Source of the DNA: Gammaproteobacteria bacterium
GTDB taxonomy: Bacteria > Pseudomonadota > Gammaproteobacteria > Methylococcales > Methylomonadaceae
Direction: 5' to 3'
Length of the DNA: 64,000 bases
Assembly: GCA_024277935.1 (NCBI GenBank)
Contig: JAJRUF010000190.1
Coordinates: forward strand, 495-64,494
A model generated the notes under the pieces. That model was given only the letters and a program-made list of their open reading frames with translations, was not told the DNA's origin and searched no databases. This document shows positions 14,434 through 61,546 of this stretch, in pieces. The stretch's first letter is position 1. Each line of letters starts with the position of its first letter. The position numbers and the translations under genes were made by a program.

Positions 14434-14435
14434 TA

Positions 14436-14708: not shown

Positions 14709-14711
14709 TTG

Positions 14712-17063: not shown

Positions 17064-17351
17064 TCTGTATTGTACCGCAAATAAGCCTGTTAATGATTAA
17101 TAAATCTGCAAAATAATAGCCTCTGTCTATACTTTAAGCTTAAACTCATCACCTAATAGTATTAAGCTAAAATCAACAAATATAGCTGAGGAACTTTCTA
17201 AAAAAGTCCCAGAATCACCACTTTAGATAAAAAGAACACTGAAAAATTGAGTAAAGACAACAAGGTATAACAAGATAGGTGGCTTTAAGCATCCATTATT
17301 TTTAATAAAATAACCTTGGCTTTTATTATACAAATTCAGGAATGACCATTT

Positions 17352-43893: not shown

Positions 43894-45507
43894 TTATAAA
43901 TAGGTAGATAAAACAATGGTTACAATAACCACCCCAGACAACATAGAAGAATACCGAGTTAAACCAAATTTAGAATAATCTTGGTGTAATAAATATTCTA
44001 ATGCATAAACCAAACAAAATAATCTAAAAGCAACATGCTCAACCCACTCTATATCAGCCAGAAAGAATCCAGCCATTATAAATAACAGGACTAAAACATC
44101 TTGTGTCGTCACCCTAAACTTATCTTTTCGGGTAATTCGAATAGCAACCGATACCACGATAATGAGTAACAACAAAAAAGCATTCATTACCCATTGGTTA
44201 TAAGCACTTAACTCAGGTAATTCATTACTCATTACATTTGCCACTATTGCAGCAATATAAATGCTAAATCGAATCCAGATATCCTGATTTTTTTTGCTAG
44301 AAATAAAAAATAAAATAATGGCTAAAGCCATCCCTAAATACATTTTATAGGAAAGCTGCGCAATTTTATCTGCCAAATAAAATAATTGTATGACTAAAAA
44401 AGTTGTTATTGCATAATTAATATAATATCGGCAAAACTGAAACACCCAATCATTTCTGAGTAGATGGTTTCTTCGGCGGTCACCACCCTCAATAACATGA
44501 TGTAATGTCCACTTTGTTTTCCCAGCCCAATAAAATAGCAATAAAATAGTCGCTGAAATAATTAAATAGGTCCCGATAACAACAATGTCGGATGCATAAC
44601 GAAAACGCAGTGCCGATGCTAAAAAAACACCTTGTAATAAATAAATGCTTCCTACAGCTTCTGCATGTGAAAACCCATACTCCATCAAGCGATGATGAAT
44701 ATGAGTCTTATCGGGAGAAAAGGGCGACCTTCCAGCTCGAACCCTACGCACCATAACCGTTAATGTATCTAAAATAGGTAGCCCTAACAATAAAAGTGGA
44801 AGTGCAGGGTTTAAAGCTGGGTTTACATCCTGGGTCAAATAAATACAAAGAAAGACAGCCATAAAACCAATAAACTGGCTTCCGGCATCACCCATAAAAA
44901 TAATAGCTGGATGCGTATTAAACCATAAAAACCCAACGATTCCACCTGCTACAGCTAGAGCAACCACGGCAGTATCAAACCCATTTGCATCAACGGCTAA
45001 ATATGCAATTGCTGCAAATGTTAGTAACATTATTCCGGCCGCTAGCCCATCCAAACCATCAGATAAATTAACGGCATTTGTTACGCCAATAGCAAAAATA
45101 ACCGTTAAGGGCAGGGAAATAAATAAAAAAACAGGCTCTAATCCTAAAAAAGGGACAATACTTATATATATCCCCCCAAACATCGCCACAATTACCGCCA
45201 ACAACTGACCTAAAAACTTCCATTTATAACTTAATTCAAAACGGTCATCCAGCAAGCCAAATACAATAATAAGCAAACTAGCCCCCAGAAAACTGACTAA
45301 TTTTTCTTCAAAATCAATAAAACACAAAGTTGCAATAATCGCACCTAATGCCAAACCTAAGCCCCCACACCTAGGAATTGCAATAGTATGTATTTTTCGT
45401 TCTCCCGGCTGATCAAGCATATTTAAAAAATCAGCATGCTTCATAAATAACGGTATAAGAATAAGGCTGATAATAATTGAAAGTGCAAAGGAGAAAAATA
45501 AAATCAT
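43894..45507 (-). CDS. WecA/MraY-family polyprenyl-phosphate sugar-1-phosphate transferase with an extra C-terminal membrane domain
   Basis: 537 aa. NAVNLSDGLDGLA and DKTHIHHRL motifs in the first ~330 aa, then about 190 aa of additional TM segments. Confidence 0.8.
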   Translation of the reverse strand: MILFFSFALSIIISLILIPLFMKHADFLNMLDQPGERKIHTIAIPRCGGLGLALGAIIATLCFIDFEEKLVSFLGASLLIIVFGLLDDRFELSYKWKFLGQLLAVIVAMFGGIYISIVPFLGLEPVFLFISLPLTVIFAIGVTNAVNLSDGLDGLAAGIMLLTFAAIAYLAVDANGFDTAVVALAVAGGIVGFLWFNTHPAIIFMGDAGSQFIGFMAVFLCIYLTQDVNPALNPALPLLLLGLPILDTLTVMVRRVRAGRSPFSPDKTHIHHRLMEYGFSHAEAVGSIYLLQGVFLASALRFRYASDIVVIGTYLIISATILLLFYWAGKTKWTLHHVIEGGDRRRNHLLRNDWVFQFCRYYINYAITTFLVIQLFYLADKIAQLSYKMYLGMALAIILFFISSKKNQDIWIRFSIYIAAIVANVMSNELPELSAYNQWVMNAFLLLLIIVVSVAIRITRKDKFRVTTQDVLVLLFIMAGFFLADIEWVEHVAFRLFCLVYALEYLLHQDYSKFGLTRYSSMLSGVVIVTIVLSTYL

Positions 45508-45848: not shown

Positions 45849-47438
45849 TTAACTCGGTACATATTTTCCCAACTCAGGAAAAACAACTGTTAAAAAATCG
45901 GCCATTTTCTTATCAGCTTCTGCTTCATTACTTCCTTCAGGTAAAGAGACAACCAAACGAACCAGTGCTCCATCGGTACGGTGCCGCGTCAATGCATCCC
46001 AAAATAAATACAGTTTTACCATATATTCATTGGTAATAATGCGACCTCTTTGTTGAAACCAATAATAAACCAACTGCCTATTATTACCTTTACTAATTAC
46101 AGTCCTGTTAACAACCAGTGGCACGCCCTTTGTTGTAACAAGGTTCTTTATTTTGCGTTGCTCAAATTCACCAATTCTCCAGCCATCACCAGGCATACAA
46201 GACTTTGGCGAGTGAGCAGAGGCTCCCTTACGTTGAGAAGCATAGTATGCGACATAAAAATTTACCGGTAAGCTATCGCCAGGCCTTACATAATTACTAA
46301 TAATATAATCATTAAATTTTAATGCTTTTATAAATTTCTGCTCCATGCCCACTTCAGCACCTTTCCAGACACCTAATTGCAAAGGAAATGAGGTGAATTG
46401 TTGCCTGGCAGGTTCAAAATCTTCCCTTCCCCCCAATAAAATGGAAAGCGGTAGCATTATTAGTAACAAAGCACAGGCTGCTATATATGGCTTTGATAAG
46501 CCAAAAAAACCATTTGTATTTTTACCCGTAATAATCTTTTCTATTCTAGTTTCATTATGGAAATTTGCATCAACAACAAACACCTGAGAAAAGCTCTTTC
46601 CTGGCATAAAAAACCTAACGAACACCCACATTTCCACAAACAGCACGCCCAAACAACCTATAAAAATAATCCAGCCTTCAAAATCATGTAAAAAGCCTTC
46701 TGCTTGTCCAATCCCCCAATATTCAACCAATATACCAATAACACCAATACGAAAACTGTTCATCAAGACCGTAATAGGTAAGGTCGTTAAAAATATAGTG
46801 GCTCGCATCCAAAAAGGTGCTTTAAAAAAATAAGCACACAAAAAGCCAAAGCTACTTAAGGGAAATAAATAGCGTAAACCGCTACAAGCCTCAACAACTT
46901 GTAATTTATAGACCCCTAAATCAATGACATTGCCTTGCAAAAAAACGCTAATATCAAGCGCTCGTATTACCCAAACACCTAATTGCGATGAAATTAATTG
47001 CAACTGAGAAGAAAGGTTATTGTACAGAAAATTGGGCAATGGAATCATAAAAAACAAATAGGCTAAAGGAAACCACAAAACCCTTGACCCTTTTATACCG
47101 ACTGCTGCTAAAGCCAAGCCATATAAAATCAGTAAAAAGGCATATTGAGTAATGATATATAGTGACGCTAATTCCCCCATTAGCCCAACCATTAAACCTA
47201 TTACAATAACAGCAACTCCTAGCCAGCTTCCCTGTCCTAAATACTGACTGGCTACCGCCCTGTTACTCCAAAAAAACCAAAAGGAAATAACAGGGATTAA
47301 ATACCCATGACTATACTCCTCTCTTTCCCAGCTTTTCAGCATATAACTAAGCGCATCATTAAACATAAAGCCTAGCACTAATGCTACTAAACAAAAAGAT
47401 GCGTACAGTACGGTATTTTTTTTAATGGGTAAATTCAT
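45849..47438 (-). CDS. Exosortase (EpsH family) fused to a C-terminal EpsI domain
   Basis: 529 aa. An 8-TM N-terminal half with VVEACSGLRY (Cys), NSFRIG (Arg) and LHDFEGW (His). The C-terminal ~200 aa are EpsI-like (FPLQLGVWKG..., YVAYYASQRKGASAHSPKSC). Confidence 0.85.
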   Translation of the reverse strand: MNLPIKKNTVLYASFCLVALVLGFMFNDALSYMLKSWEREEYSHGYLIPVISFWFFWSNRAVASQYLGQGSWLGVAVIVIGLMVGLMGELASLYIITQYAFLLILYGLALAAVGIKGSRVLWFPLAYLFFMIPLPNFLYNNLSSQLQLISSQLGVWVIRALDISVFLQGNVIDLGVYKLQVVEACSGLRYLFPLSSFGFLCAYFFKAPFWMRATIFLTTLPITVLMNSFRIGVIGILVEYWGIGQAEGFLHDFEGWIIFIGCLGVLFVEMWVFVRFFMPGKSFSQVFVVDANFHNETRIEKIITGKNTNGFFGLSKPYIAACALLLIMLPLSILLGGREDFEPARQQFTSFPLQLGVWKGAEVGMEQKFIKALKFNDYIISNYVRPGDSLPVNFYVAYYASQRKGASAHSPKSCMPGDGWRIGEFEQRKIKNLVTTKGVPLVVNRTVISKGNNRQLVYYWFQQRGRIITNEYMVKLYLFWDALTRHRTDGALVRLVVSLPEGSNEAEADKKMADFLTVVFPELGKYVPS

Positions 47439-47743: not shown

Positions 47744-50376
47744 TTAGAAAGCATAACCCCAGCGAACTAATAAAGTTCCATCACGTTTTAACTGATAACC
47801 ATTAAGGTCATGAATAACTGGCTGCAACCATTCAACACTTAAGCTATGGCCAGCCAGTTCACCGCTCGGAACGGTAAGAGTAGCACCTAAACCAATATCC
47901 CAAAATTTTCCACCATAATTTTTAGGATTTATATTTGTCGTTAACTGGGGAGTATCACCCTGCTTATTTGGATCAACAATATGTAGCATTCTTTTAGCCT
48001 GCCCCTGAATACTGCCTTTATTTCGGTATTGATTTCGCACGGTGAACGACAACCAATCTAAAGGACGATAACCAAGCCATACAGACCCTTTAAACTCATC
48101 ACCTAAAGCATACCCCAATTTGTTATGATTCTGCATCCTTTTAGTACCACTTAACTGCCCTCCCCAAAACCACTGATCAACATGACCAGTATAGGTCAAA
48201 CTAGGCTTTAAATCCCAGGTTCCACTCCCCAACTGCATACCATAGCTTTGAACCAAACTAGTATCATTTAAAAAACCATCAAATGTCACGTCAATTCTTG
48301 CCGTTGGGGCACTAACTCCGATCCCTAAATGTACATGATGCTGACCATTATCATATAGTTTAATCAAGCCTGACAAAATAGTATCGCCTAAACCGATATT
48401 TTCATGAAAACCAGGAGGTGTTGAAAAGGGAACCGAAGCCATATCCATTTTCATATAGGCAAATTGAGGCATTAGCATTAAATTTAACCAGCCTGTTGGT
48501 GCATACATAAAATTAAGCATATGCATATCCATCCGCATTTCCGTCGCTTTAAATTCACAAATACCACCAGCACCACGACAAGCTTGATTGACCAACTCCT
48601 GATCACCAATGCCAGTACGTCTACCCTGTTGAAAGCCCTCCGCCCAGTTAGAGTTTGCATAATTATAAGAGATCATAAATTGACCGGCTTCACTAAGCAT
48701 ATGTCCATTCATAAGACCAGCAGGTGCATGTCCTCCATGGTGATGATGTTTATGTGACTTATGCTGATCAGCTAGCCCTCGACCCAGACTGGATAAATTA
48801 ATATTTAAGCCTGCAGATAATAGATACGAATCAATATCGGCAAAACCAGAATCCCCTTTTCCACCCAGTTGCAATGAACTCCGCTGAGTCATATATTCAA
48901 AGCCACCCGACAGCGTTACACCTTTGGCAAACTGTTTACTCAGCGTCAAACCACCACTCACTTTACCAAAACCTGATAATCTATAATCACTGGAATAATA
49001 GCCATCTGCACGCGGTGCCAGAAAATATGGCGCATAAAACTCTGCTGCCGTTTGTGAATAATAACGCAGATGAGGTTTAAGCATAAAACCAAAAGGTAAT
49101 TTTTGATACCAAGACAGAGCCAGTGTATGTGAACGAAGTTGCCAATCATCCCATTGATAGCGATAATTTAAATGCAAAGCCCCGTCTAATGCAGAAACAT
49201 ACTGATTAACCCCTGCCGATATTGACCATTGATCGCGTTTATCAGGCCTGACTTCCCGATATAAATCAATACCCATCGGTACCAGATCAACCCCTGTATA
49301 ATATTTCCAGCCTTTATTCGAGTTATCCAACGGCGTTTTCAAGCCCACTAATAGATAATCTACTGCTGTTAACACCCCTTTAACATACACCAGTTTATAC
49401 GGATTAGAGAGAAAACCTCGCTTTCGGGTATATTCGCCATTAAAATAAGCCAACGTGTTTTTGCTAAACACCTGACTAAAAGCAATACTATAAGTACGGT
49501 AAGTATTATCAGCATTAAAATCATCCGAAGTACCACCATGGTCATGCGCCCCTCCTGTTGGGGGAGCCGCCCTAAAAATATGGTTATTAGAAAATTTATA
49601 TCCAAAAGTTAAAGTCGACAACTTATTATTAAATTCAAAGCTGTTGTAAATTGAGCCAAAAGTTGAAGAATAATCAGGTTCAATTGAATAACCTCCTGAT
49701 GCTGACAATGTATAGGACCCCAAAAATAACTTGCCTCCTAATACTGGCATATTTCGTGTTTCTAGTGGGTGGGGTTCAATAATCTGTGTAGTGGTATGAT
49801 CAGTACCTGACTGCTGTTTACTAAGGTAGCGCCTAAATATCTCTGTTTGAAACCTCAAAAAAAATCATTTGGGTTAATTGGAGGACTTGAGTGGTCTGAA
49901 TTTATTTGCTGTATCAAGTTAGAAGGTAATAAAGGTAAAGAGCCAATATTTATTCCTGCCTGAAGAGATTGGTCTTGAAAGGCAACATTAACAAGACCAA
50001 AAATTTTTCCAAAAGCTGGGCCTCCGGCATTCTCAAAACCCGATGCTTTAGTCACAATATCTATACTATTAGCGGGAACAACATAACTCGGCGAAGCCCC
50101 CGTATAAGTATCCTGGTCATGGGAAAATGACAACTGTAACCAGTCTGTTACAGGCGCAACAAAGCCGCCATGATAAACCTGAACCTTCATCCGCTTACCT
50201 TCTTCGCTATAATAGCCAAATTGAGTATTTAGCTGAGGTTCGGCCACGGGAATGTCCGCTTGCACATCCAAACTCGACAAACTTAAAGCCGCACTTGTCA
50301 GTGCCAATAGAGTGTTTTTTCCAGATTGTTTAAATCCTCTTTTTTTTCTTTTAGTTACATCCACACCCACCCCCAC
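47744..50376 (-). CDS. DUF3570-like outer-membrane barrel fused through a His-rich linker to a second (MetA/phenol-degradation-type) barrel. It is interrupted by a frameshift in the A8 run at 49857-49864.
   Basis: The 173-aa ORF (GTG start, signal peptide ...SLDVQA) and the 704-aa ORF overlap by 4 nt. One extra base in the homopolymer fuses them into about 877 aa. The linker is HKSHKHHHHGGHAPAGLMNGHM. The C-terminus is ...LLVRWGYAF. Confidence 0.7.
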
Positions 50377-50557
50377 TTCCCATCATTCCACCGGATGAAG
50401 CTTCCTTACTGTCAAATACATGTTCCATCAAAGCAGCTTGTTGAGGGTTGGGGGTAATCGACATTTCCTGTTTTGCTAAATGACCTCGCTCCCATGGCGA
50501 TACCGTACAGGCAGACAGTACAACTAACAAAAAAACACTGAAATAGAGAATTTTCAT
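50351..50557 (-). CDS. DUF4266-like small lipoprotein
   Basis: 68 aa. Lipobox VLSAC and C-terminus GSGGGCGCN. It lies immediately upstream of the DUF3570-like gene, as is usual for this family. Confidence 0.7.
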   Translation of the reverse strand: MKILYFSVFLLVVLSACTVSPWERGHLAKQEMSITPNPQQAALMEHVFDSKEASSGGMMGSGGGCGCN

Positions 50558-50591: not shown

Positions 50592-51050
50592 TTATATCTG
50601 CTTATCCTTATCCCGAAATCCTAAATGAATATTCCGTATTTTCCCCTGCTTATCAATAAAATATGAAGATGGCATTGCTTTAACTTGATATTTTTCCGGA
50701 CAGTCACCCACAGGATCCAACTCCACCTTATAATTAACCGGAATTTGTTGTAAAAAACGATAGACATCTTGCGTATCTTCATCAACATTAACCGCAATAA
50801 TCTCCAAACCTTGCACTCCCATTTCAGTTTGCAAAGCATTAAAAAAAGGGATAGATTTTTTGCAGGGTGGACACCATGTTGCCCAAAAATCAAGTAACAC
50901 TACTTTTCCACGGTAAATACTTAAATCCAATACTTGTTGTTCAGCAGACATTAATCGAGCATTACAAGCAGGTGCTAAATCACCAAGCTGAACCGCCTCT
51001 GCCTGACTTAACTGAAAAAACATTAGTACAATCCAATAACAAAATTTCAT
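50592..51050 (-). CDS. TlpA/ResA-like periplasmic thiol:disulfide oxidoreductase
   Basis: 152 aa with a signal peptide. LLDFWATWCPPCK active site. Confidence 0.85.
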   Translation of the reverse strand: MKFCYWIVLMFFQLSQAEAVQLGDLAPACNARLMSAEQQVLDLSIYRGKVVLLDFWATWCPPCKKSIPFFNALQTEMGVQGLEIIAVNVDEDTQDVYRFLQQIPVNYKVELDPVGDCPEKYQVKAMPSSYFIDKQGKIRNIHLGFRDKDKQI

Positions 51051-51087: not shown

Positions 51088-51113
51088 AAAAAAAGGCCTA
51101 CATTGCGTAGGCC
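51088..51113 (-). terminator. Rho-independent terminator after the first PEP-CTERM gene
   Basis: Minus strand: GGCCTAC-gcaat-GTAGGCC followed by T7. Confidence 0.65.
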
Positions 51114-51135: not shown

Positions 51136-51972
51136 TTAAGCTAGTTCTGTTATTTTACGTTTTCTGCCAACACCTACTAAACCAATCATTGCTGAAGCAA
51201 ATAAATACGCTGCAGCAGGTACAGGTACGGCTGATACTGGTGCTGATATTTCTACATTATCAACCTGTAAACTTAAGGTATGGTTTGGATTTATTCCCCT
51301 AAAACTGTTTCCATTTGAATCATTATAAAAATATTCCAATAAGTACAAATCGCCAAATGCAGCAACGTCATCCAAATGAACATGTGTTCCTCTAAACACC
51401 TGCCCTGTAAGAGCATCAGTTCCTGTTTGAGTCGCTACTGCAGTTGAGCCATCCATAACGACGGGGTTTCCATTAACATCAGTAGATAGTGTTACATCAT
51501 ACGAATTAGCTAAGTCAGCACTGGTATAACCACGAATAGTCATACTATTAAATACTGAGTCTAATGTTAAAGTCTGTATATCAAGTCCATTAACACTGAA
51601 ATCATGCCCATCGGATAACCGGTAAAAGGCTCCACCTGAATCACCTGCTAATTCTGCAGTATAATTACCATCACCATTAGGATCCTGCCTATGAACATGG
51701 CTAAACCCACCAGAAAAATTTCCTACATTATGACTAAAACCCGGGGCAGTACCAAAACCAATAGCACCAAACCAGACGCCCTTTTCTGAATAATATTGCC
51801 CTCCTGCTGGAAAAACAGATGTCGCTAATCCTGCCGAGCTTGCCGAACTACCCAGAGAGACAGTAGATCCGCTTGAAAAATCAAGCACTGAACCACCCGG
51901 CAAAAGATGAGCTGATGCTTGACTTGATACTGCTAGCATTCCTGCTGCGATTAAAATCATTTTTGTTTTCAT
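51136..51972 (-). CDS. Secreted PEP-CTERM-type protein (P1), VPVPA variant anchor
   Basis: The probable start is MKTKMILIAAGMLAVSSQASA (M19 of the listed ORF, with an AGAGG RBS). The C-terminus is VPVPAAAYLFASAMIGLVGVGRKRK. Confidence 0.75.
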   Translation of the reverse strand: MKTKMILIAAGMLAVSSQASAHLLPGGSVLDFSSGSTVSLGSSASSAGLATSVFPAGGQYYSEKGVWFGAIGFGTAPGFSHNVGNFSGGFSHVHRQDPNGDGNYTAELAGDSGGAFYRLSDGHDFSVNGLDIQTLTLDSVFNSMTIRGYTSADLANSYDVTLSTDVNGNPVVMDGSTAVATQTGTDALTGQVFRGTHVHLDDVAAFGDLYLLEYFYNDSNGNSFRGINPNHTLSLQVDNVEISAPVSAVPVPAAAYLFASAMIGLVGVGRKRKITELA

Positions 51973-52030
51973 AAAAAAACCTCTATAGTGATAAAAAATT
52001 ACTAAATTGCATGCCCCCCGCATCACTTAA

Positions 52031-52712: not shown

Positions 52713-54935
52713 ATGCGGTTTAACAAAAAAATCATTATTGCCTGTTTGCTACTGCCTACACAGTACGCATTTGCTCACGGCCCAATCCCTGTTTCTCTAA
52801 AAGCAGCTCCTATTCCTCCCGTCCCAGGGTTATTAACCGGTCCATCACCTATCGTTGTTAATCAAGCAAAGGCTATTGCATTGGGTAAGGCATTATTCTG
52901 GGATATGGCGGCAGGTAGTGATGGCATAGCTTGTGCCTCTTGTCATTTTCATGCAGGTGCTGACCAGCGCACAAAAAACCAGCTTGATCCAGGACAAAGA
53001 ACTAACTCACCGACTGCCTCTACATTTGAAACACTTATTTCAGGCGCGGCAGGTGGGCCAAATTATACTTTACACCTATCTGATTTCCCTTTTCACCAGC
53101 GTAGCGATGTATTCGATTCAAACAGTACGGTTACTTTTAATACTGATGATACGGTTTCTTCAGCAGGGCCCTTTGGTCAAATTTTTCAGGCTGTTAAACA
53201 TTTTGGCAACACTAATGATAATTGCACACCGAATGTAGACCCTGTATTTCAGGTAAATAATATTGGCACCCGCCGTATTGTCCCTCGCAACACACCGTCT
53301 GTTATTAACGCTGTCTTTAATCATAGGAATTTTTGGGACGGCAGGGCAAACAATGTATTTAATGGTAGTAGCCCTTGGGGTGACCGAGATCCAAATGCTG
53401 GGATCTGGGTTAAAATTAATGGCCGCAAAGTAGTCAAACAAAAATTACAATTAATTAACTCAGCATTAGCATCACAAGCACTTGCCCCAGCATTAAGCGA
53501 TGTTGAAATGAGCTGTCAACACCGGACATTTGCTGATATAGGCCGCAAATTATTAATGCGTAGACCCTTGGAACACCAAAAAGTCCATTTTCAGGATAGT
53601 GTTTTAGCAGCCTACAGCTCTAGCACTCAGGGAAACTTGCAACAAGGCTTAAATACCACTTATGGGGCATTAATTCGTGCTGCATTTAATAGAAAATATT
53701 GGTCGTATCGCCGCCGTGACCCTTTTGGCAGCCCCACAAGTGGACTACCCTTCACCCAGATGGAGGCTAATTTTTCATTATTTTTTGGCTTGGCGATTCA
53801 ACTCTATGAATCAACCTTAATTTCTGATGATGCACCTATCGACCGAGCCAGTCGAGATCCTGTCACCTATTTACCGACCGACCTTGGTGATTCTGTAAAA
53901 AGAGGCATGGCTGCTTTTGAAGAATTCCATTGCAATATATGTCATTCAGGCCCTACTTTGTCTGCAAATGCGATTATTACAAACGCACAAATGTTAGAAA
54001 ATAACCCTACAGTTTTTAATTCTAACAATTTTTCTCAAGGAGGATCAAATGGTGTCGCAATCAATCGCAATGTCGTGAACTATGATAATGCGGTGGGTTC
54101 TAAGTTTTTTGATACGGGCTTTGCAAACACTGGCGTACAAGATCCTTCTGGCGACCCTGGAGTCAATGGAACTGATGATTTTGGTAACTCATTATCATAC
54201 GCTGATCAATATGCAGAGTATTTAGCAGTAACAGCCAATGCAATTATTGATACGGCCGTTGGAATTGAAGCAGTTAAGGCTTGTAACTTCCAGTCTTTGC
54301 TAGCAACCCAAAGAACATTTCCATTTGTAATGACGCAGTTTTTCAATAACCCTGCTGATATTACTCCAGACCCTAACGGTTCTGCTAACTGTTTTAACAG
54401 TGGATCTCTTGATGCTTTTATTCCTACTCAGGCTGCGGCTGCGGCAGAATTAGCCAACCCTGCCAGCAAAAAAATGGCCTTTGCAACGCAAGCCGCCTTT
54501 AAAGTTCCTAGCTTGAGAAATGTTGAACTCACAGGACCTTATATGCACAATGGCGGCATGGCAACACTAGAACAGGTTATTGAGTTTTATACACGAGGTG
54601 GAAATTTTCCAAATAATTTCACCCATCAATTTGTGACCTCTCTACCTTTATTTGGTACAGACCCCGTTATTAATGCTGCAACTATACAAAAGAGAAAAGA
54701 TATTATTGCATTTCTTAAATCATTAACCGATGGACGCGTGCGTTATGAACGTGCCCCCTTTGACCACCCAGAACTCATAGTTCCAAATGGTCATATAGGT
54801 GATGAGACGAATGTTACTGCTGGAAATTCCTTAGGCGGTGCATTTGCACAAGATATATTAATGACAATACCTGCTGTAGGGGCAAATGGAAAGGCAACAC
54901 CTCTCCAGGCATTCAAAGATGTTTTAGCACCTTAA
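52713..54935 (+). CDS. Long-form di-heme cytochrome c peroxidase/MauG-family protein (CCP1)
   Basis: About 740 aa with a signal peptide. CASCH (codon at 52932) and CNICH (53931). FWDGRAN and PSLRNVELTGPYMHNGG motifs. The listed ORF starts 12 nt earlier at TTG. Confidence 0.85.
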   Translation: MRFNKKIIIACLLLPTQYAFAHGPIPVSLKAAPIPPVPGLLTGPSPIVVNQAKAIALGKALFWDMAAGSDGIACASCHFHAGADQRTKNQLDPGQRTNSPTASTFETLISGAAGGPNYTLHLSDFPFHQRSDVFDSNSTVTFNTDDTVSSAGPFGQIFQAVKHFGNTNDNCTPNVDPVFQVNNIGTRRIVPRNTPSVINAVFNHRNFWDGRANNVFNGSSPWGDRDPNAGIWVKINGRKVVKQKLQLINSALASQALAPALSDVEMSCQHRTFADIGRKLLMRRPLEHQKVHFQDSVLAAYSSSTQGNLQQGLNTTYGALIRAAFNRKYWSYRRRDPFGSPTSGLPFTQMEANFSLFFGLAIQLYESTLISDDAPIDRASRDPVTYLPTDLGDSVKRGMAAFEEFHCNICHSGPTLSANAIITNAQMLENNPTVFNSNNFSQGGSNGVAINRNVVNYDNAVGSKFFDTGFANTGVQDPSGDPGVNGTDDFGNSLSYADQYAEYLAVTANAIIDTAVGIEAVKACNFQSLLATQRTFPFVMTQFFNNPADITPDPNGSANCFNSGSLDAFIPTQAAAAAELANPASKKMAFATQAAFKVPSLRNVELTGPYMHNGGMATLEQVIEFYTRGGNFPNNFTHQFVTSLPLFGTDPVINAATIQKRKDIIAFLKSLTDGRVRYERAPFDHPELIVPNGHIGDETNVTAGNSLGGAFAQDILMTIPAVGANGKATPLQAFKDVLAP

Positions 54936-54983
54936 AGTATTGCAACACTACAACTAAGCACTTTTTTAAAATTATTAGCTCTC

Positions 54984-55066
54984 GTTCCCACGCTCCAGCG
55001 TGGGAATGCATACCGTGCCTAACAAAAGTAACGTATGCATTCCCACCGAGGATGGCGGGAATGAGC
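54984..55066. repeat. Nested palindromic repeat
   Basis: TTCCCACGC-tcca-GCGTGGGAA, GGGAATGCATAC...GTATGCATTCCC and CATTCCCACC...GGCGGGAATG. The segment GGGAATGCATACCGTGCCTAACAAAAGT recurs at 56044-56076. Confidence 0.7.
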
Positions 55067-55085
55067 AACATTTAGGAATTTTACC

Positions 55086-55871
55086 ATGAATTTTTTTTCC
55101 ACCCATAAAAAAACCTTACCCCCCCTAGCCGTAGTAGGTTTACTTGCTTTAGGCTTACAACCCGTTAGTGCAAACAGTGTGTTTTCTACTGACTCCACTG
55201 TTACATTAACTTTTAACAGTATCACTAGTAGCTCAAGTAATACTTCGGGATTAAGTATAAGTGGCTTATTTGAAATTGGCGTTCCTACTAACGATCCTTT
55301 TGCACAACCACCAGCAACCCTCGGGTTTGGCAATACTTTTACAGGTGACGGCCAATCCAGTTACTCATATACAGGCGCAGCCCTACCACTTACAGTTAAT
55401 GCTGGCGACAGTTTTATTCAGTCTTTTAGTGCGTCAGGCGGTTCTGGAAACGGTACTATTAATTCTTATTACCAATCTTATGGAACATTTGATTTTGCAA
55501 ATAACTCCGCATCCGATACCTATACTATAAACTTCAGCCTTGATTATTCTTTAGATGCATTTGCAACGGGCAGTGCTTCTCAATCTCAAGCGTCAATTGA
55601 TTATTCTGATGACTTGGGCTTTATATTTGGCAGTGACCAAGCTACTGCCAATGCCCAAAATAACACTCATAGCACTAAAAACCCTGGGGCTTTAACTTTT
55701 AATATGGTATTAAACCCAGGAGACTCTAACATCTTTTATGCTGATATTGCCTTAACAGGGTCTGCCGCCAGTACATCACCAGTACCTTTACCTGCTACAT
55801 TGTGGTTATTTTTATCTGCTGTTATTGGCTTGCGAGGGTACAAAAGCAGAGCAATACAAGCTCATAGTTAA
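55086..55871 (+). CDS. Secreted PEP-CTERM-type protein (P2), VPLPA variant anchor
   Basis: 261 aa with a signal peptide (...LQPVSA). Ser/Thr/Gly/Asn-rich body. C-terminus SPVPLPATLWLFLSAVIGLRGYKSR. Confidence 0.75.
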   Translation: MNFFSTHKKTLPPLAVVGLLALGLQPVSANSVFSTDSTVTLTFNSITSSSSNTSGLSISGLFEIGVPTNDPFAQPPATLGFGNTFTGDGQSSYSYTGAALPLTVNAGDSFIQSFSASGGSGNGTINSYYQSYGTFDFANNSASDTYTINFSLDYSLDAFATGSASQSQASIDYSDDLGFIFGSDQATANAQNNTHSTKNPGALTFNMVLNPGDSNIFYADIALTGSAASTSPVPLPATLWLFLSAVIGLRGYKSRAIQAHS

Positions 55872-55909
55872 AACAGCCAAGTTATTTTCTCTCATTTCCA
55901 CACTCCTGC

Positions 55910-56034
55910 GTCACTGCCATTAACTTAAGCGTTTCGCGTATAGGATGTGCTGACGACAGGCAGCGCATCAATGATACAAAGATGCGCTTCGTACCGCTGT
56001 ACACCCGGTTTTTCCTGAAGTCAATGGCAGTGAC
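55910..56034. repeat. Inverted-repeat element carrying a nested copy of the GTAGGATGTGCTG... palindrome
   Basis: The outer 12-bp inverted repeat is GTCACTGCCATT / AATGGCAGTGAC. The inner palindrome at 55938-56006 is a degenerate member of the 31532 family. Confidence 0.6.
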
Positions 56035-56042
56035 ACCCCTGC

Positions 56043-56447
56043 ATGGGAGTGCATACCGTGCCTGACAAAAGTGATGCTAGTGTTCCTGATACAACTGGTG
56101 TGTACATTGGTTGCGGAAGTACTAATGCTTGCCTAACGAATACCGCTTTATTTGATAATTTTCTAGCTGATAATTATTGGACAGGCTCAGAAATAGACAC
56201 TACTTTTGCTTGGAGTTTTAATGCTCAACATGGGATTCAAACACCCTTCGATGGAAAGGCTAACTTATTTTATGCTTGGGCAGTTCGCTCCGGAGATGTA
56301 GCAACTGTCCCTCTACCTGGCACATTCTGGCTGTACTTGTTTTGCTTAATGAGTTTAACTGCTTTTCTTATTCATACTCGCTATACAGGAGTGCCATCAA
56401 AAGATACCGTAGCGCGGCTAGAAATCTGCTTACCACGTAGCGCGTAG
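56043..56447 (+). pseudogene. C-terminal fragment of a DUF1566-like protein with a PEP-CTERM-type anchor (P3)
   Basis: It has no signal peptide, and the first ~12 codons lie inside a repeat copy. NYWTGSE...AWSFNAQHG...LFYAWAVRSGDV resembles the end of a DUF1566 domain. This is followed by VPLPGTFWLYLFCLMSLTAFLIHTRY and an unusually long tail. Confidence 0.45.
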
Positions 56448-56672
56448 TAAACTAGTACAGCAGAATCATTTTGTAGGGTGGGCAGTCTTTTTTGCCCACC
56501 GTTGCATAATTCAATTTATTGCGAGGCAGAAAAAGGCTGTCCGAGAAGCATCTTCGTCATAGCAACATCAAACTGTGTCATATCACACAAAGTCATGGCA
56601 TATAACACAAAAACTTGTTCCACCTCACACTTTAATATAAAAAAACCACCAGTAATAGACCTTTAACTTTAT

Positions 56673-56688
56673 TGGCATTAAATATGCT
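56673..56688 (+). promoter_or_regulatory. Candidate sigma-54 promoter upstream of P4
   Basis: TGGCATTAAATATGCT (GG-N10-GC) is nearly identical to the P1 site, but it lies 320 nt upstream of the P4 ATG. A second site at 56922-56938 (TGGCATTAAATATTGCC) has N11 spacing. Confidence 0.4.
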
Positions 56689-57007
56689 TATCTAAATATG
56701 ATTTATTTTTAAACTGTGCTTTAGTATCGAATCAACGTATTTAGCAAAGGTTTAAGAGTTGTCAGTACCACACTCGTAGCAATGCGAGACCGGAAAGCCG
56801 TGGAGCTCATTGAGTTAGCCAGGCTACTCTCTTTTATCGAAGAGATGAGTGGGAAGCAAATCATTTTCGAAGTTGAATAGGCTTCCCACAAAACCACTTT
56901 ATTACATTTGAATATTTCTGCTGGCATTAAATATTGCCGGAACAAATGTTTTAAAACGTTACAACACCCTATTGGATTTAGCAATTAATTTTGAGGTTTA
57001 AAACATA

Positions 57008-57835
57008 ATGAAACAACTTTCTACAACATTTAAAGTATCACTGGCAGCTGCAGCTCTTGTAATAAGCAGTAATGCAATGGCTGGTCTCGTTTCTCCAACA
57101 CCTGGAGCTAATTGGGACGGCGGTAATAATCATTTAATGATGGCCGGTTCCACTATTTCTGCATCAAATCAAACAGCAAATCGGGAGTCTTATACTGGCA
57201 ATCCAAGTCTTGATAATGCCGCTTGGGGGCACGTAGGCTATTGGTATACTTTTATGAACCATCACGCCTTGGATACCACAGTTTCGGTTGATTCAGCTAT
57301 GTCAGATCTTGGTATGACAGTATGGCGCACTAACGGGGAGTTTGATGGCGGCACCCAGTCTTCAGGTGAACTATCATCAGCAGGAGTAGGCATACCTCAC
57401 TCATTTAATCAGACGGGAAATGCGGGTGACTCTGGCACCAAATGGATGACAGATAGCTCATTAATGACAGCTGATCCATTAAATACAGGTACAGCCAACG
57501 GTATCCTTGAAACCTTAGGTTATGTCAACTCGGGGGCTGCACAGTCAATAAATGGTTGGGGCAACTCTGTTGGTCACGGTGCATTTGATACCAGTTTAAC
57601 TAACACCTATGAAACTGGCGTTACAGGTACTGCAACTGCTGGACATATTGACCTAACTTTATCAAACCTTGCTAATGGCTGGTACGTAGTCTTTATCGGT
57701 GGAACTAATCACACTCAATCTTCGCACAATATTAATTTAACCGTATCGCAAGTACCTGCACCTGCAGCAGTCTATTTATTTGGAAGCGCTTTAGTAGGGT
57801 TAATATCTGTAGGGCGCAAACGAAACGCGGCTTAA
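57008..57835 (+). CDS. Secreted PEP-CTERM-type protein (P4), VPAPA variant anchor
   Basis: 275 aa with a signal peptide (...SSNAMA). C-terminus VPAPAAVYLFGSALVGLISVGRKRN. Confidence 0.75.
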   Translation: MKQLSTTFKVSLAAAALVISSNAMAGLVSPTPGANWDGGNNHLMMAGSTISASNQTANRESYTGNPSLDNAAWGHVGYWYTFMNHHALDTTVSVDSAMSDLGMTVWRTNGEFDGGTQSSGELSSAGVGIPHSFNQTGNAGDSGTKWMTDSSLMTADPLNTGTANGILETLGYVNSGAAQSINGWGNSVGHGAFDTSLTNTYETGVTGTATAGHIDLTLSNLANGWYVVFIGGTNHTQSSHNINLTVSQVPAPAAVYLFGSALVGLISVGRKRNAA

Positions 57836-58052
57836 TTTATTTATCAGATCAGGATCTATTCACAAATTAAGCTGAGTAGATTCTGATTCTCCTTAACCAC
57901 CACTCACCTGAAACTCGGTAAAATACATACAACTCCTTACCTCGGAGTCATCCATTCTACCTTTTAAAAGTACGACACTAGGAATGGATAGCCTAGATTA
58001 TTATAGTAATAGCGTGTGTTTTTTAGAGACATCACTATCCTTGGAGTTATAA

Positions 58053-60272
58053 ATGTTTGTTCACTCTAAATTTAATTTTTTACCCTTTTCGCTACTAGCA
58101 CTCTTCCTGCTACAAGTTAATAGTGCAGTAGAAGCCGCTGCACCAGGCCCTATCCCTATCAATTTAAGCACCCTACCTGTACCACCCACCCCCGGCTTAA
58201 GCAACGGATCAGATCCAATTGTTATTGATCTACAAAAAGCCATTATTCTTGGTAAAGCTTTATTTTGGGATACTAATGTAGGCAGTGATGGTATGGCTTG
58301 TGCTTCTTGTCATTTTCATGCAGGTGCAGATGTAAGAGTTAAAAACCAAATATCCCCAGGAGGAAAGTCAACACCGCCTCAAGCACAGTTATTTGATAAT
58401 TCCACTTCAGGCGACTTAATTAATGCCAACCATATTTTAAAAAAATCAGACTTCCCTTTTTACCAACTCCAGCAACCACTGGACCCTAACTCTCCCACCA
58501 TTCATAACAGTGATGATGTGGTTTCATCTGCTGGCTCATTCGGCGGTCAATTTAAGGGTATAGATCTTTACGGTAGCAATGTGGATGATTGTCTAAGAAA
58601 CGCTGATCCAGTATTTCATGTTGGTAGTACAGGCACTCGTCGAGTGCAACCTAGAAACACTCCAACAGTTATTAACGCGGTCTTTAATTATCGTAATTTT
58701 TGGGATGGCCGAGCAAACAATATTTTTAATGGAAGTAGCCCTTGGGGTGATCGTGATACAAATGCGGGTATCTGGGTTAAAATCAATGGCCGTAGAGTTA
58801 TTAAAAAATCATTACACTTAATTAATTCATCCTTAGCATCACAAGCACTTGCGCCGCCCCTTAACAGCACAGAAATGAGTTGTGCGGGTCGAGTTTTTCC
58901 TGCTCTAGGCAGGAAGTTATTACAAAAAACACCATTACAGCAGCAGAAAGTAGATTTTCAAGACAGTGTTTTAGGTAGCTTAAGCAATAGCTCAGCAGGT
59001 GATATACAGCCTGGGTTAAATACAACGTATGGTGCGTTAATCCGCGCTGCTTTCAATAGAAAATATTGGTCTTATCGTCGTCGCGGCCCTTTTGGCTCAG
59101 CTCCCAACCAACTTCCTTATACTCAGATGGAAGCTAATTTTTCAATGTTTTTTGGTTTGGCTATTCAGTTATACGAAAGTACCTTAATTTCTGATCAATC
59201 ACGTTTTGACCTAAGTGCACGCGATGAAACAGGAATGCCAACTCAATTAACTGCATCAGAAATGAATGGCTTAGAACAGTTCCGGCTGAATCAGTGCGCC
59301 CTTTGCCATATTGGTCCTAATTTTACCGCTACATCAATTGCTGCAAATGCGGCTATTGCAAAGACACACCCTGAAGCTTTTGGTGATGCTTCCAGCTCCA
59401 TCAGTACAAGCAGCAATGTTGTAAACCGTATTTTAACAGCGCGTTCAGTAGCCATGTTCGACAGTGGTTTTGCTTCAACTGGAGTTACCGAAACCACTTC
59501 TGATATAGGTGTTGGAGGCACAGATCCTTTCGGCAATCCTTTATCATTTTCATTACAATATATACAACACCTCACCGGTAACAATACTGCAGTTGTTGAC
59601 GCTGATGTTTTTAATGTCCGCTCATGTGATTTCCAGGAAGCATTTGCTGTCAATGTAACTTTTCCATTCCCTATCACCAAATTTTTTACCGCTGCCGATG
59701 ATTTAATCCCTCAGCCTCAAAATACAATTGACTGCTATTTACAAGTAAACAGTGCATTTTTACCCTCTCCCTCTACGGCCTTGGCTGAATTAAATAAGCC
59801 TAATAGTTTAAAGCTAACTACGGCTGTAAACGGTGCGTTCAAAATACCTTCTTTACGAAATATTGAGCTAACAGGTCCCTATATGCATAATGGTGGCTTG
59901 GCATCACTGGAACAAGTTATTGAGTTTTATGCCCGAGGTGGAAATTTTAACCCTCCAGCTAAGCAGTCAGTGAAAGTATTTCCACTGGCGCTTTTAACAT
60001 CTGATACGGCTGCTGCACAAAACCGTGCCGACTTGATTGCTTTTTTAAAGACCTTAACTGACGAACGAGTCAAATATGAAAAAGCACCCTTTGACCACCC
60101 AGAAATCAAGATTCCCCACGGCCATGTAGGAGACGAATTTTCAGTAGTCAATGGAAACCCAATTGCAGCTGCTAGTGATTTAGCTGAGGATGAGTTCATA
60201 ACAATCAATGCCGTGGGTGCGTCTGGACGTTCAACACCGTTAAAAGCCTTTGATAGTCTGTTAGCTCCTTAG
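58053..60272 (+). CDS. Long-form di-heme cytochrome c peroxidase/MauG-family protein (CCP2), paralogue of CCP1
   Basis: 739 aa with a signal peptide. CASCH and CALCH. FWDGRAN and PSLRNIELTGPYMHNGG motifs. It shares long identical peptide runs with CCP1. Confidence 0.85.
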   Translation: MFVHSKFNFLPFSLLALFLLQVNSAVEAAAPGPIPINLSTLPVPPTPGLSNGSDPIVIDLQKAIILGKALFWDTNVGSDGMACASCHFHAGADVRVKNQISPGGKSTPPQAQLFDNSTSGDLINANHILKKSDFPFYQLQQPLDPNSPTIHNSDDVVSSAGSFGGQFKGIDLYGSNVDDCLRNADPVFHVGSTGTRRVQPRNTPTVINAVFNYRNFWDGRANNIFNGSSPWGDRDTNAGIWVKINGRRVIKKSLHLINSSLASQALAPPLNSTEMSCAGRVFPALGRKLLQKTPLQQQKVDFQDSVLGSLSNSSAGDIQPGLNTTYGALIRAAFNRKYWSYRRRGPFGSAPNQLPYTQMEANFSMFFGLAIQLYESTLISDQSRFDLSARDETGMPTQLTASEMNGLEQFRLNQCALCHIGPNFTATSIAANAAIAKTHPEAFGDASSSISTSSNVVNRILTARSVAMFDSGFASTGVTETTSDIGVGGTDPFGNPLSFSLQYIQHLTGNNTAVVDADVFNVRSCDFQEAFAVNVTFPFPITKFFTAADDLIPQPQNTIDCYLQVNSAFLPSPSTALAELNKPNSLKLTTAVNGAFKIPSLRNIELTGPYMHNGGLASLEQVIEFYARGGNFNPPAKQSVKVFPLALLTSDTAAAQNRADLIAFLKTLTDERVKYEKAPFDHPEIKIPHGHVGDEFSVVNGNPIAAASDLAEDEFITINAVGASGRSTPLKAFDSLLAP

Positions 60273-60365: not shown

Positions 60366-61373
60366 ATGTTAGTTCTTGGACAGTCTTTTAGCTGTTATAA
60401 TGCAGAGGCTATAAGCATATTATACGAATTTAAGTCTAACCAATACATGCCTCTCTCTCTTTATCAATTTCCTTTTCAAGCAATGGGTTCAACTTGTAAT
60501 ATACAGTTATATGCCAATAATAAACCCAACGCTCAAAATATTGCTGATTTAGTTGTGAGTGATGTCCGTCGAATTGAACAAAAATATTCACGCTATAGAA
60601 ATGATAGTGTTTTAACTGCAATTAATAATATTGCAGAGAGTGCAGGATCAATTCAAATTGATGAAGAAACATTAGCATTACTTAAATATGCTGATACTTG
60701 CTATCAACAAAGTGACGGGCTATTTGACATAACATCAGGTGTTTTAAGAGAAGTTTGGGATTTTAAAACGGGTAAAATCCCAAAGAATAAAGAAATTAAA
60801 GGAATTTTGCCAAAGATAGGGTGGAATAAACTCAGTATTATAGGTACCTCACTAAGTTTTTCAGTAAAAGGAATGCAGCTGGATTTTGGAGGTATTGGTA
60901 AAGAATATGCAGTTGATAGAGCTGCTACTATTTGTCAGCAACACGGCCTTCAACATGGATTAATAGATCTGGGTGGGGATATTAAAGTTATTGGTCCTCA
61001 TGCTGATGGCAGACCATGGTCAGTTGGTATTCGCCACCCTCAAAAGCCAGGTGAATTAATGTCCAGTATAAATGTGTCTCGTGGAGCTGTTGCCAGTAGT
61101 GGAGATTATGAAAAGTGTATTATTCTTAATGGGAAAAGGTATAGTCATGTACTGAATCCAAAAACAGGCTGGCCAGTAAGGGGCTTATCTTCTATTACTG
61201 TTATTGCAGAGCAGTGTGTTATTGCAGGAAGTATAACAACTATATCAATGTTAAAAGAAACTAAAGGTAAGCGTTGGCTTAAGGGGCTCGGCTTGTCCTA
61301 TCTATGGATGGATCAGCAGGGGAAGGTTGGTAGTAGTTTAAATAAACATGGTTATATACAAACTACAGCTTAA
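60366..61373 (+). CDS. apbE: FAD:protein FMN transferase (ApbE family)
   Basis: 335 aa. FQAMGSTCNIQLY, DGLFDIT, LDFGGIGKEYAVD and ASSGDYE motifs. The probable start is the internal MPLSLYQF (60447). It lies 93 nt downstream of CCP2. Confidence 0.85.
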   Translation: MLVLGQSFSCYNAEAISILYEFKSNQYMPLSLYQFPFQAMGSTCNIQLYANNKPNAQNIADLVVSDVRRIEQKYSRYRNDSVLTAINNIAESAGSIQIDEETLALLKYADTCYQQSDGLFDITSGVLREVWDFKTGKIPKNKEIKGILPKIGWNKLSIIGTSLSFSVKGMQLDFGGIGKEYAVDRAATICQQHGLQHGLIDLGGDIKVIGPHADGRPWSVGIRHPQKPGELMSSINVSRGAVASSGDYEKCIILNGKRYSHVLNPKTGWPVRGLSSITVIAEQCVIAGSITTISMLKETKGKRWLKGLGLSYLWMDQQGKVGSSLNKHGYIQTTA

Positions 61374-61428
61374 TTTGGTAGTGGGTTAAATCTGTAGTTT
61401 TAACAAATTCATTCTCATTAATAACAGA

Positions 61429-61464
61429 TTTTTTGGGCGCAGGCTTTAGCCTGCGCCCAAAAAA
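61429..61464. terminator. Perfect palindromic bidirectional terminator
   Basis: T6-GGGCGCAGGC-ttta-GCCTGCGCCC-A6. It is embedded in a larger imperfect palindrome (61383-61507). Confidence 0.6.
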
Positions 61465-61546
61465 TGGATAAATTGTTAAAATAGCCTTATCAACAGATTT
61501 TACCCATCACCAAAATAAGCTCCGAAACATGAAGTATCCTACTTAG

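Follow-up and report, generated by a model that had tools for sequence, protein, structure and literature searches.

What do two unusually long di-haem enzymes act on when their genes stand among those of secreted proteins with exosortase sorting tails? The question is raised by a stretch of 64,000 nucleotides from a Gammaproteobacteria bacterium of the family Methylomonadaceae (GenBank assembly GCA_024277935.1, contig JAJRUF010000190.1, positions 495 to 64,494), referred to at its full length as the window, in which two members of the cytochrome c peroxidase (CCP)/MauG superfamily, CCP1 and CCP2, are encoded together with four open reading frames (ORFs), P1 to P4, ending in PEP-CTERM-type tails. 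An original prediction, made from the sequence alone, likened the arrangement to MbnP–MbnH, where the haem enzyme modifies its neighbour, and paired P1 with CCP1 and P4 with CCP2. Our analysis makes it fairly probable that the genes form a cassette in which two MauG-type enzymes from the CorB/SACCP group accompany P4, a copper-binding surface protein resembling CorA, whose Trp73 would be converted to kynurenine. Comparisons were made with relatives' loci, denoted by L numbers, which comprise 80 loci from a scan of one genome per species and loci added later.

Class and age of the two di-haem enzymes

Both enzymes have two CxxCH motifs, an inter-haem Trp within FWDGR and matches to Pfam CCP_MauG (PF03150) of 69.1 bits (CCP1) and 70.5 bits (CCP2), above the gathering cut-off of 25.6 bits. 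The CCP1 reading frame encodes 744 amino acids from nucleotide 52701, from which its residues are numbered here, and 740 from the likely start at ATG 52713, the shorter form matching a database entry at 100% identity; CCP2 has 739 amino acids, and the two proteins are 54% identical over their full length. In CCP1 haem 1 is bound by C78xxC81H82 (codons from 52932) and haem 2 by C411xxC414H415 (codons from 53931), and in CCP2 the corresponding motifs begin at residues 83 and 415 (codons from 58299 and 59295). FWDGRAN, PSLRN and GPYMHNGG are found in CCP1 and CCP2 alike, and the inter-haem W212 of CCP1, which aligns with FWDGRA of classical enzymes, is kept in 79 of 81 proteins of the long form. 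The distance between the haem motifs is 333 residues, and PSLRN follows haem 2 after another 192; the motifs and the spacings of about 330 and 190 residues that had been claimed are thereby confirmed. The large extra length that had been ascribed to two insertions is real, but local alignments with the classical enzyme 1nml divide it into three insertions (CCP1 residues 91–193, 220–361 and 422–595) and a C-terminal extension of ~63 residues. Many residues in the insertions are invariant, four extra cysteines among them, and the AlphaFold2 (AF2) model of CCP1 (predicted template modelling score (pTM) 0.86) is mostly of high confidence in these parts, so the insertions are domains rather than low-complexity linkers. 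The opposite expectation, linker-like insertions together with neighbours that are not conserved, fails on both points, as the neighbours are conserved across bacterial classes.

The position of the second, or E, haem ligand distinguishes MauG-type enzymes such as MauG, MbnH and BthA, with His-Tyr ligation, from canonical peroxidases, with His-Met ligation (PMC11892367). In an ungapped alignment covering CCP1 residues 594–639, Y630 (nucleotides 54588–54590) stands opposite MauG Tyr294, the Tyr of MbnH and Met258 of the Nitrosomonas europaea peroxidase; MauG Tyr294 is chain index 294, and a Y294H variant scores two bits lower in the same alignment. The predicted equivalent in CCP2 is Y626 (59928–59930), and Tyr occupies this column in 78 of the 81 long-form proteins. 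The axial ligand of haem 2, left by the original prediction as either Met or Tyr, is thus predicted to be Tyr, as in MauG, from the alignment rather than from coordinates. The surroundings of MauG Tyr294 (PSLRNV..TGPYMHNG....FY) are almost the same in CCP1 and CCP2, and MauG shares with them the inter-haem Trp as well as the predicted His/Tyr second haem; its own target is a Trp of a separate substrate protein, methylamine dehydrogenase, in tryptophan tryptophylquinone biogenesis. MauG is, however, half the size of CCP1 and CCP2, and no mau genes are nearby. A Foldseek search with the CCP1 model returned MbnH (6e1c, E 6e-6) first, followed by MauG (1e-4) and canonical peroxidases (1e-3), which, together with the Tyr position, upholds the assignment to MauG-like enzymes rather than canonical peroxidases. 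MbnH, at ~350–390 amino acids, is without the insertions of CCP1 and CCP2. The NCBIfam equivalog models for MbnH (TIGR04039; 85 and 105 bits against 362.85) and MauG (TIGR03791; 68 and 79 bits against 443.85) match the C-terminal motif region only, in both cases below the curated cut-offs.

The nearest characterized relatives are instead the long-form enzymes first described in 2005, CorB and SACCP. In Methylomicrobium lacus (L032) the gene adjoining a homologous enzyme on its upstream side encodes CorA itself (PDB 4bz4, E 1.6e-138), and that enzyme is therefore a CorB orthologue; it is 48–49% identical to the two enzymes of the window (48.7% for CCP1 and 47.6% for CCP2 over 680 columns, full length), all three being from Methylococcales. 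The CorB-type enzymes examined have 702–768 amino acids, similar to CCP1 and CCP2. These comparisons place both proteins in the methanotroph CorB/SACCP group of MauG-like enzymes, within which they appear to form new, paralogous subgroups.

The two copies are old. In the 24-residue peptide GLNTTYGALIRAAFNRKYWSYRRR shared by both enzymes, 13 of 24 codons differ and all differences are synonymous, as had been noted with coordinates one base too high; the proper frame is 53646–53717 in CCP1 and 59013–59084 in CCP2. Over 731 aligned codons pN is 0.316 and pS 0.691, giving dN/dS of ~0.21 at a dS that is close to saturated. In a quickly made neighbour-joining tree of the 81 long-form enzymes, annotated with their neighbours, each copy falls among orthologues from other genera, indicating that CCP1 and CCP2 represent two old orthologue groups, so the proposal of an old duplication with both copies maintained holds. 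A recent local duplication is ruled out by the near-saturated dS and by the grouping with orthologues of other genera. Identity of CCP2 is 60.6% with the L003 enzyme and 56.6% with the second such enzyme of Methylococcus sp. EFPC2. The closest relatives of the enzymes are nearly all from Methylococcales, and the family is large, with 1062 clusters at E ≤ 1e-30 among 1.84 billion representatives.

P4 and the conserved partners of the enzymes

The divergence of P4 from CorA is too great to be bridged by a search with one sequence, and phmmer with P4 against PDB sequences gave nothing useful. A profile of eleven P4-type proteins with the sorting tails removed, searched against the PDB, had CorA (4bz4) as its top match (E 0.0036), aligned over the W-x-H region. 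One-round hidden Markov models (HMMs) of the P4 and CorA families matched each other reciprocally at 1e-10 to 1e-4, and hhalign of the two families, again without tails, gave a probability of 97.1% (E 5e-11, 199 columns), pairing W73, H75 and H131 of P4 with Kyn62, H64 and H114 of CorA. An AF2 model of P4 built from 45 homologues (predicted local distance difference test score 86, pTM 0.80) matched CorA 4bz4 in Foldseek with E 5e-8, probability 1.00 and a TM score (target) of 0.53–0.55, followed by MopE* (2vov, 1e-5) and a next match at 1e-2. As the PDB profile search, the reciprocal HMMs, hhalign and the model agree, P4 is a diverged protein of the CorA/MopE fold that keeps the copper-site residues. 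In CorA and MopE the ligands of Cu(I) are two His residues and a Trp-derived kynurenine; the same W-x-H...H residues are present in P4, and the predicted copper site would consist of W73 (nucleotides 57224–57226) as the kynurenine precursor, H75 and H131, each of which is kept in at least 90% of the 45 homologues.

Unlike CorA, which has no PEP-CTERM tail, P4 ends in one. The P4 family comprises ~45 clusters, annotated 'hypothetical' throughout, with PF07589 annotated on some homologues, and P4 thus defines an unannotated, exosortase-tagged CorA-like family, which points to a way in which proteins of this kind could come to be associated with the cell surface. Full-text literature searches of an incomplete collection returned no account of CorA homologues with a PEP-CTERM tag, which is weak evidence of novelty. 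Within the family, W-G-H is changed to W-G-M or to Val in members among L021 (767–1648), L003 (6756–7568), L007 (6793–7608) and L008 (6727–7875), and those with Met at position 75 recall the His/Met/kynurenine site of MbnP.

The gene order is that of two known systems, CorA–CorB of Methylomicrobium album BG8 and MopE–SACCP (MCA2589/MCA2590) of Methylococcus capsulatus Bath, copper-repressed gene pairs in which a small secreted Cu(I)-binding beta-sandwich protein is encoded directly upstream of a di-haem CCP/MauG enzyme, as P4 is of CCP2 (gap 217 nucleotides). These pairs are nearer to the locus than MbnP–MbnH, originally taken as the closest system. MbnP–MbnH is alike in combining a MauG-type enzyme with a periplasmic partner in which Trp becomes the kynurenine of a copper site, but the fold of MbnP differs from that of CorA and MopE, and an NCBIfam scan (E ≤ 0.01) found no MbnP-type match for P1 to P4, in accord with the earlier caution that P1 and P4 are not obviously homologous to MbnP. 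The locus represents a variant of a gene pair already known from copper acquisition, not a system of a new kind. Relative to CorA–CorB and MopE–SACCP, for which copper repression is the defining physiology, it adds P2, one more enzyme, linkage to a flavinylation module and a riboswitch of the cyclic di-GMP (c-di-GMP) class.

The tree separates three sister clades, each with its own neighbour: CorB-type enzymes with corA upstream, CCP1-type enzymes with a P2-family gene directly downstream and CCP2-type enzymes with a P4-family gene directly upstream, CCP2 itself clustering with the latter. The enzyme gene has a CorA-like gene no more than 3 kb away in 13 of 15 CorB-type, 6 of 9 CCP1-type and 11 of 12 CCP2-type cases, and in 3 of 40 for distant long-form members. 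The CCP1-type loci without a CorA-like match are L002, L013 and L016, the first being a 4.6-kb contig with a partial P4-like match running into its end; in the window the CorA-like gene, P4, is 2 kb downstream of CCP1. Among six independent contigs with P4 homologues, a CCP_MauG gene follows directly in five and the sixth contig ends there, and several show the full CCP–P2–P4–CCP order. All ten genes recur in the same layout in Methylococcus sp. EFPC2 (CP070491, 4.138–4.156 Mb), with P1/ApbE/DUF3570/DUF4266/TlpA facing CCP1/P2/P4/CCP2, and in Methylomonas methanica MC09 (CP002738, 2.980–2.998 Mb) TlpA–DUF4266–DUF3570 is followed by a CCP1-type gene, P2 and P5, a further PEP-CTERM family that is related to CorA (91.7%) and lies beside CCP1-type genes in other genomes. 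Since the cassette is present in these sequenced isolates, in part in Methylomonas methanica, the relation of enzyme to substrate is directly testable. Among methanotrophs, nitrifiers and their relatives, the CorB-type family thus falls into at least three old subgroups, each with its own conserved partner. Distant members in Pseudomonas and Nostoc had no conserved secreted partners, only neighbours of cytoplasmic type.

The partner-protein idea accordingly stands for P4 and CCP2, where the fold, the Trp and the His residues are kept and the P4-type gene is directly upstream in many genomes, but not for P1 and CCP1. P1-type genes occur in few loci and lack a conserved Trp, whereas a P2-type gene immediately follows the CCP1-type gene in 8 of 9 loci, and does so in L082 and L083 too; the partner kept with CCP1 is therefore not P1 but P2, joined by a CorA-like gene close by. 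P1 against the CorA and P4 families gave hhalign probabilities of at most 6%, and P1 and P2 against CorA/P4 at most 10%, all with tails removed; phmmer with P1 against PDB sequences gave nothing useful, and PDB profile searches with P1 and P2 found no relative of known structure. On these grounds P1 and P2 were rejected as CorA- or MbnP-like partners. Apparent HMM links between P1, P2 and P4 came from the common sorting tail, which is all that P1 and P4 share. The P1 family, with members in L001, L003, L004 and L083, has an invariant H92-x-H94 plus conserved Asp and Ser, and this pattern may mark a metal site in a fold of unrecognised type. P2 has no Trp in its mature part, its family has no conserved W, H, C or M, and hhalign detected no relation to CorA or P4.

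Several arrangements depart from this pattern. Two long-form enzyme genes stand in direct tandem with no partner between them in some Methylococcaceae (L016, 92–4681; L034, 7965–12201; L035, 498–4851). In L084 (1–3699; CP024202, a complete genome) a lone P4–CCP2 pair lies beside a divergent gene for a TonB-dependent receptor and genes for a DUF4154 protein and a CHASE8-HAMP-GGDEF-EAL protein. In Methylomonas methanica MC09 (L082) a 719-amino acid cytochrome with faint CCP_MauG similarity (13821–15980) is followed by a second CorA-like (P5) PEP-CTERM protein (16609–17538); the two may represent a more diverged enzyme–partner pair.

Regulation, flavin chemistry and the proposed mechanism

The aptamer found 177 nucleotides upstream of P4 matches RF01051 (clan CL00126) at 38.6 bits against a gathering threshold of 35. 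Aptamers occupy the same position upstream of P4-type genes in L009, L083, L021, L012, L084, L085, L087 and L088, and weakly in L003, so that they span loci of Methylococcales, Nitrosomonas and Desulfuromonas; they are present in four of the six independent P4 contigs and overall in about half of 19 P4-type genes examined, and 9 of the 21 pairs of the aptamer show compensatory changes. Several relatives score best on the GGC variant model, and c-di-GMP is therefore a putative ligand of this c-di-GMP-I-class aptamer; full-text searches of the incomplete literature collection yielded nothing useful on the variant models. Genes for c-di-GMP signalling stand in the same region, as PilZ and HDOD-GGDEF proteins are encoded close to the exosortase cluster. 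Further aptamers of the class were seen in L088 (675–752 and 1894–1976), L089 (8793–8867), L017 (3736–3811), L008 (2294–2380) and L010 (8087–8160), upstream of other genes, some of them for PEP-CTERM proteins, and in one case behind the second enzyme gene; aptamers of this class seem to be unusually frequent in the clusters.

The enzyme genes are bracketed by genes for a TlpA-type thioredoxin-fold protein, a DUF4266 protein and a DUF3570 protein on one side and for ApbE on the other. In the extracytosolic flavinylation system described by Meheust et al. (2021, PMC8238504), who report the CXC motif of DUF4266, ApbE flavinylates DUF3570 in a system of unknown function; all four genes are present here in the usual arrangement, beside the enzyme genes. 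Some of the clusters in that account also contain VIT1 ferrous-iron transporter genes, and the passages concerned make no mention of di-haem MauG-type enzymes or CorA-like proteins (PMC8238504). The module is linked to CCP1- or CCP2-type genes in L001, L003, L004, L015, L082, L083, L085, L086 and L089 besides the window; ApbE adjoins the CCP genes in L010, L015, L083, L085, L086 and L089, and in the window it may share a transcript with P4 and CCP2. L082 and L083 have a gene with the Pfam annotation DUF4266 at the corresponding place, and the thioredoxin-fold protein of the window matches the ResA/TlpA-type models of NCBIfam below their cut-offs.

The DUF3570 protein of the window departs from the described system by an extra C-terminal domain, a His-rich linker and a frameshift. 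The Pfam profile is covered at positions 3–101 in one ORF and 134–423 in the other, the frame being split at a run of eight T (49856–49863; ORF junction 49855–49863, minus strand), whereas the gene is a single ORF in L001, L082 and L083; the interruption could be a homopolymer sequencing error, a pseudogene or a site of slippage. One flavinylation-type motif, TGAS, is present at residue 92, where two are described (PMC8238504). The 704-amino acid ORF contains a His-rich stretch, HKSHKHHHHGGH (residues ~366–385), followed by a C-terminal domain of ~300 residues outside the Pfam model, features that suggest metal binding. In the papers searched, no description was met of a linkage of such an enzyme–partner pair to the flavinylation module and a c-di-GMP-class riboswitch; the locus ties a CorA/CorB-like pair to both.

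Whereas the families, the conserved residues, the linkage of the genes and the riboswitch are observed here, kynurenine formation, copper binding, sorting and the part played by the flavin module belong to a sequence of events that we infer by analogy with the known systems and that would begin with export of all cassette proteins to the periplasm. A di-haem enzyme would react with H2O2 at its five-coordinate haem to form a high-valent state stabilised by the second haem with its His/Tyr ligands, and this state would oxidise Trp73 of P4 to kynurenine, creating a Cu(I) site of Kyn73, His75 and His131 as in CorA and MopE*. CCP2 is the most likely modifying enzyme, since its gene follows P4 in many genomes; CCP1 may act on the same P4 or on some other target. 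The exosortase would recognise the tail of P4 and deliver the protein to the cell surface or into the exopolysaccharide layer, in which position it could capture copper, and the c-di-GMP-I-class riboswitch would control P4, and probably CCP2 and ApbE, tying expression to the surface or biofilm state. The ApbE/DUF3570/DUF4266/thioredoxin module would provide an extracytosolic, flavin-based electron route that probably feeds or complements this chemistry. The modification of Trp73 by a MauG-type enzyme is suggested by analogy with MbnH–MbnP, where it has been demonstrated, and with CorB/CorA and SACCP/MopE, where it has been proposed: kynurenine copper sites are known in MbnP, MopE* and CorA, and MbnH has been demonstrated to install that of MbnP alone, the enzyme for CorA and MopE* being still listed as 'TBD' with CorB and SACCP as proposed candidates.

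Several observations weigh against this mechanism. The role of a CorB-type di-haem enzyme as the kynurenine maker has been proposed, not shown; a mutant of Methylomicrobium alcaliphilum lacking its CorB homologue grew faster than the wild type on methane, and the CorA homologue in that mutant probably still bound copper, so that non-enzymatic oxidation was suggested (PMC3912023). CCP1-type and CCP2-type enzymes are sister to the CorB-type clade in the neighbour-joining tree rather than inside it, the Tyr ligand is assigned by alignment alone, and AF2 confidence is low around both haem sites. In some P4-family members Met or Val replaces H75, and in one Leu replaces H131. The constant neighbour of CCP1, P2, has no conserved Trp or metal ligand, and the model of partner modification therefore leaves the CCP1–P2 pair unexplained. 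Finally, the only regulatory element found here is a riboswitch of the c-di-GMP class, whereas CorA and CorB are copper-repressed, and the DUF3570 gene is frameshifted in this assembly.

A more ambitious version, in which the cassette would work on its own as a machine for capturing copper and be turned on together with the biofilm state, is in our estimate rather unlikely. Here the riboswitch would turn on the CorA-like protein, which the exosortase would plant in the exopolysaccharide layer; the two MauG-type enzymes would make the kynurenine copper site and possibly another, non-Trp modification on P2 or on P1 with its H-x-H; and the flavinylated, His-rich DUF3570 protein of the outer membrane, with the thioredoxin and CXC partners, would deliver electrons that reduce Cu(II) to Cu(I). 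If true, this would provide the first function for the orphan DUF3570 flavin system and identify the long-sought enzyme of kynurenine formation in CorA and MopE.

Equally doubtful is an explanation in which CCP1 and CCP2 are envelope redox or electron-transfer enzymes working with flavinylated DUF3570 on H2O2, O2, metal reduction or outward electron flow, with the PEP-CTERM proteins co-regulated rather than modified. It draws on the flavin module, known as an extracytosolic electron-transfer module (PMC8238504), which adjoins CCP1- or CCP2-type genes in the window and nine further loci; on the presence of SACCP at the cell surface with many multihaem cytochromes; on the viability of the M. alcaliphilum CorB-homologue mutant; and on P2, which offers no obvious modifiable residue. 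The Tyr at the E haem, however, is the signature of protein-oxidising MauG, and enzymes that have it are generally poor peroxidases (PMC11892367); a general redox enzyme would not be expected to pair so tightly, and in a clade-specific manner, with CorA-like genes retaining the Trp, and no flavin module lies near the distant family members. It is very improbable that the two proteins serve H2O2 detoxification as ordinary cytochrome c peroxidases of the periplasm that insertions have enlarged, with neighbours that are coincidental: the database name 'cytochrome c peroxidase' and the core motifs of the peroxidase family favour this, but Tyr replaces Met at the E-haem position, MbnH and MauG outrank canonical enzymes as structural matches, the insertions are structured and show conservation, and the neighbours recur across bacterial classes. 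The idea of oxygenases resembling the rubber oxygenase RoxA and acting on a non-protein surface substrate, for instance a lipid or a polymer in the exopolysaccharide layer, is the least credible of all, since faint similarity to the Pfam RoxA-like cytochrome c domain (16–17 bits), a size close to RoxA and the exosortase and exopolysaccharide genes nearby are set against a cut-off of 26.7 bits, the lack of any RoxA structure among the PDB sequence or Foldseek matches, and a CorA-like partner left unexplained.

Sorting system and further features of the region

The features of the region are collected in the table below.

Table 1. Positions of the genes and RNA elements discussed, numbered from the first nucleotide of the window
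Feature	Position	Strand	Evidence or remark
RNase P RNA, bacterial class A	16696–17061	-	351 bits
PilZN-PilZ protein	35772–36512		near exosortase cluster
HDOD-HD-GGDEF protein	38990–40966		near exosortase cluster
PrsT-like TPR protein	41438–43831		beside exosortase
GT4 sugar transferase	43894–45507		beside exosortase
Exosortase, EpsH domain fused to DUF3485/EpsI	45849–47438	-	Pfam Exosortase_EpsH E 7e-68, DUF3485 E 4e-59
DUF3570 protein	47744–50376	-	two overlapping ORFs, 49855–50376 and 47744–49858; Pfam DUF3570
DUF4266-type small lipoprotein, CGCN end	50351–50557	-	68-amino acid ORF, lipobox-like LSAC, C-terminal GGGCGCN
Secreted TlpA/ResA-type thioredoxin-fold protein, CPPC motif	50592–51050	-	Pfam Redoxin E 7e-25, AhpC-TSA E 2e-22
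P1, secreted PEP-CTERM/VPLPA-CTERM protein	51136–52026	-	likely start Met19, near 51972
CCP1, predicted long-form MauG-type di-haem enzyme	52713–54935 (ORF from 52701)	+	Pfam CCP_MauG 69.1 bits
P2, secreted PEP-CTERM (SPVPLPA...) protein	55086–55871	+	sorting tail
P3, short ORF, degenerate VPLP tail	56043–56447	+	Pfam Lcl_C (DUF1566-like) E 0.004, below cut-off
GEMM-I / c-di-GMP-I-class riboswitch aptamer	56757–56831	+	RF01051 38.6 bits, gathering threshold 35
P4, predicted CorA/MopE-fold protein, signal peptide and PEP-CTERM tail	57008–57835	+	AF2 model, Foldseek, profile matches
CCP2, predicted long-form MauG-type di-haem enzyme	58053–60272	+	Pfam CCP_MauG 70.5 bits
ApbE, FAD:protein FMN transferase	60366–61373	+	Pfam ApbE E 6e-76

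The statement that each enzyme lies next to a PEP-CTERM protein is correct for the tails of P1 (VPVPAAAYLF...GRKRK) and P4 (VPAPAAVYLF...GRKRN), but P2 and P3 carry tails of the same kind as well. The proteins show the Pro-rich motif, hydrophobic helix and basic cluster typical of PEP-CTERM tails, and an exosortase gene is present ~4 kb from the module and ~10 kb from P4; its product is predicted to be the sorting enzyme for P1 to P4. The VPLPA-CTERM model scores 22.6 bits on P1, slightly below its cut-off of 25.35. P3, which has no signal peptide, has no homologue in the 80 related loci, and at the same position in L089 there are fragmented small ORFs with a weak Lcl_C match; P3 is probably a gene remnant.

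Promoter and terminator scans between 50.3 and 61.6 kb returned sites no more frequently than in shuffled sequence, and two hairpins only looked meaningful, one at 51095–51113 and a strong one of 17 pairs after ApbE (61428–61465). In L014, from a metagenome-assembled genome of Methylococcales, a CRISPR array with DR4-type repeats (473–740) lies ~7 kb upstream of the enzyme gene.

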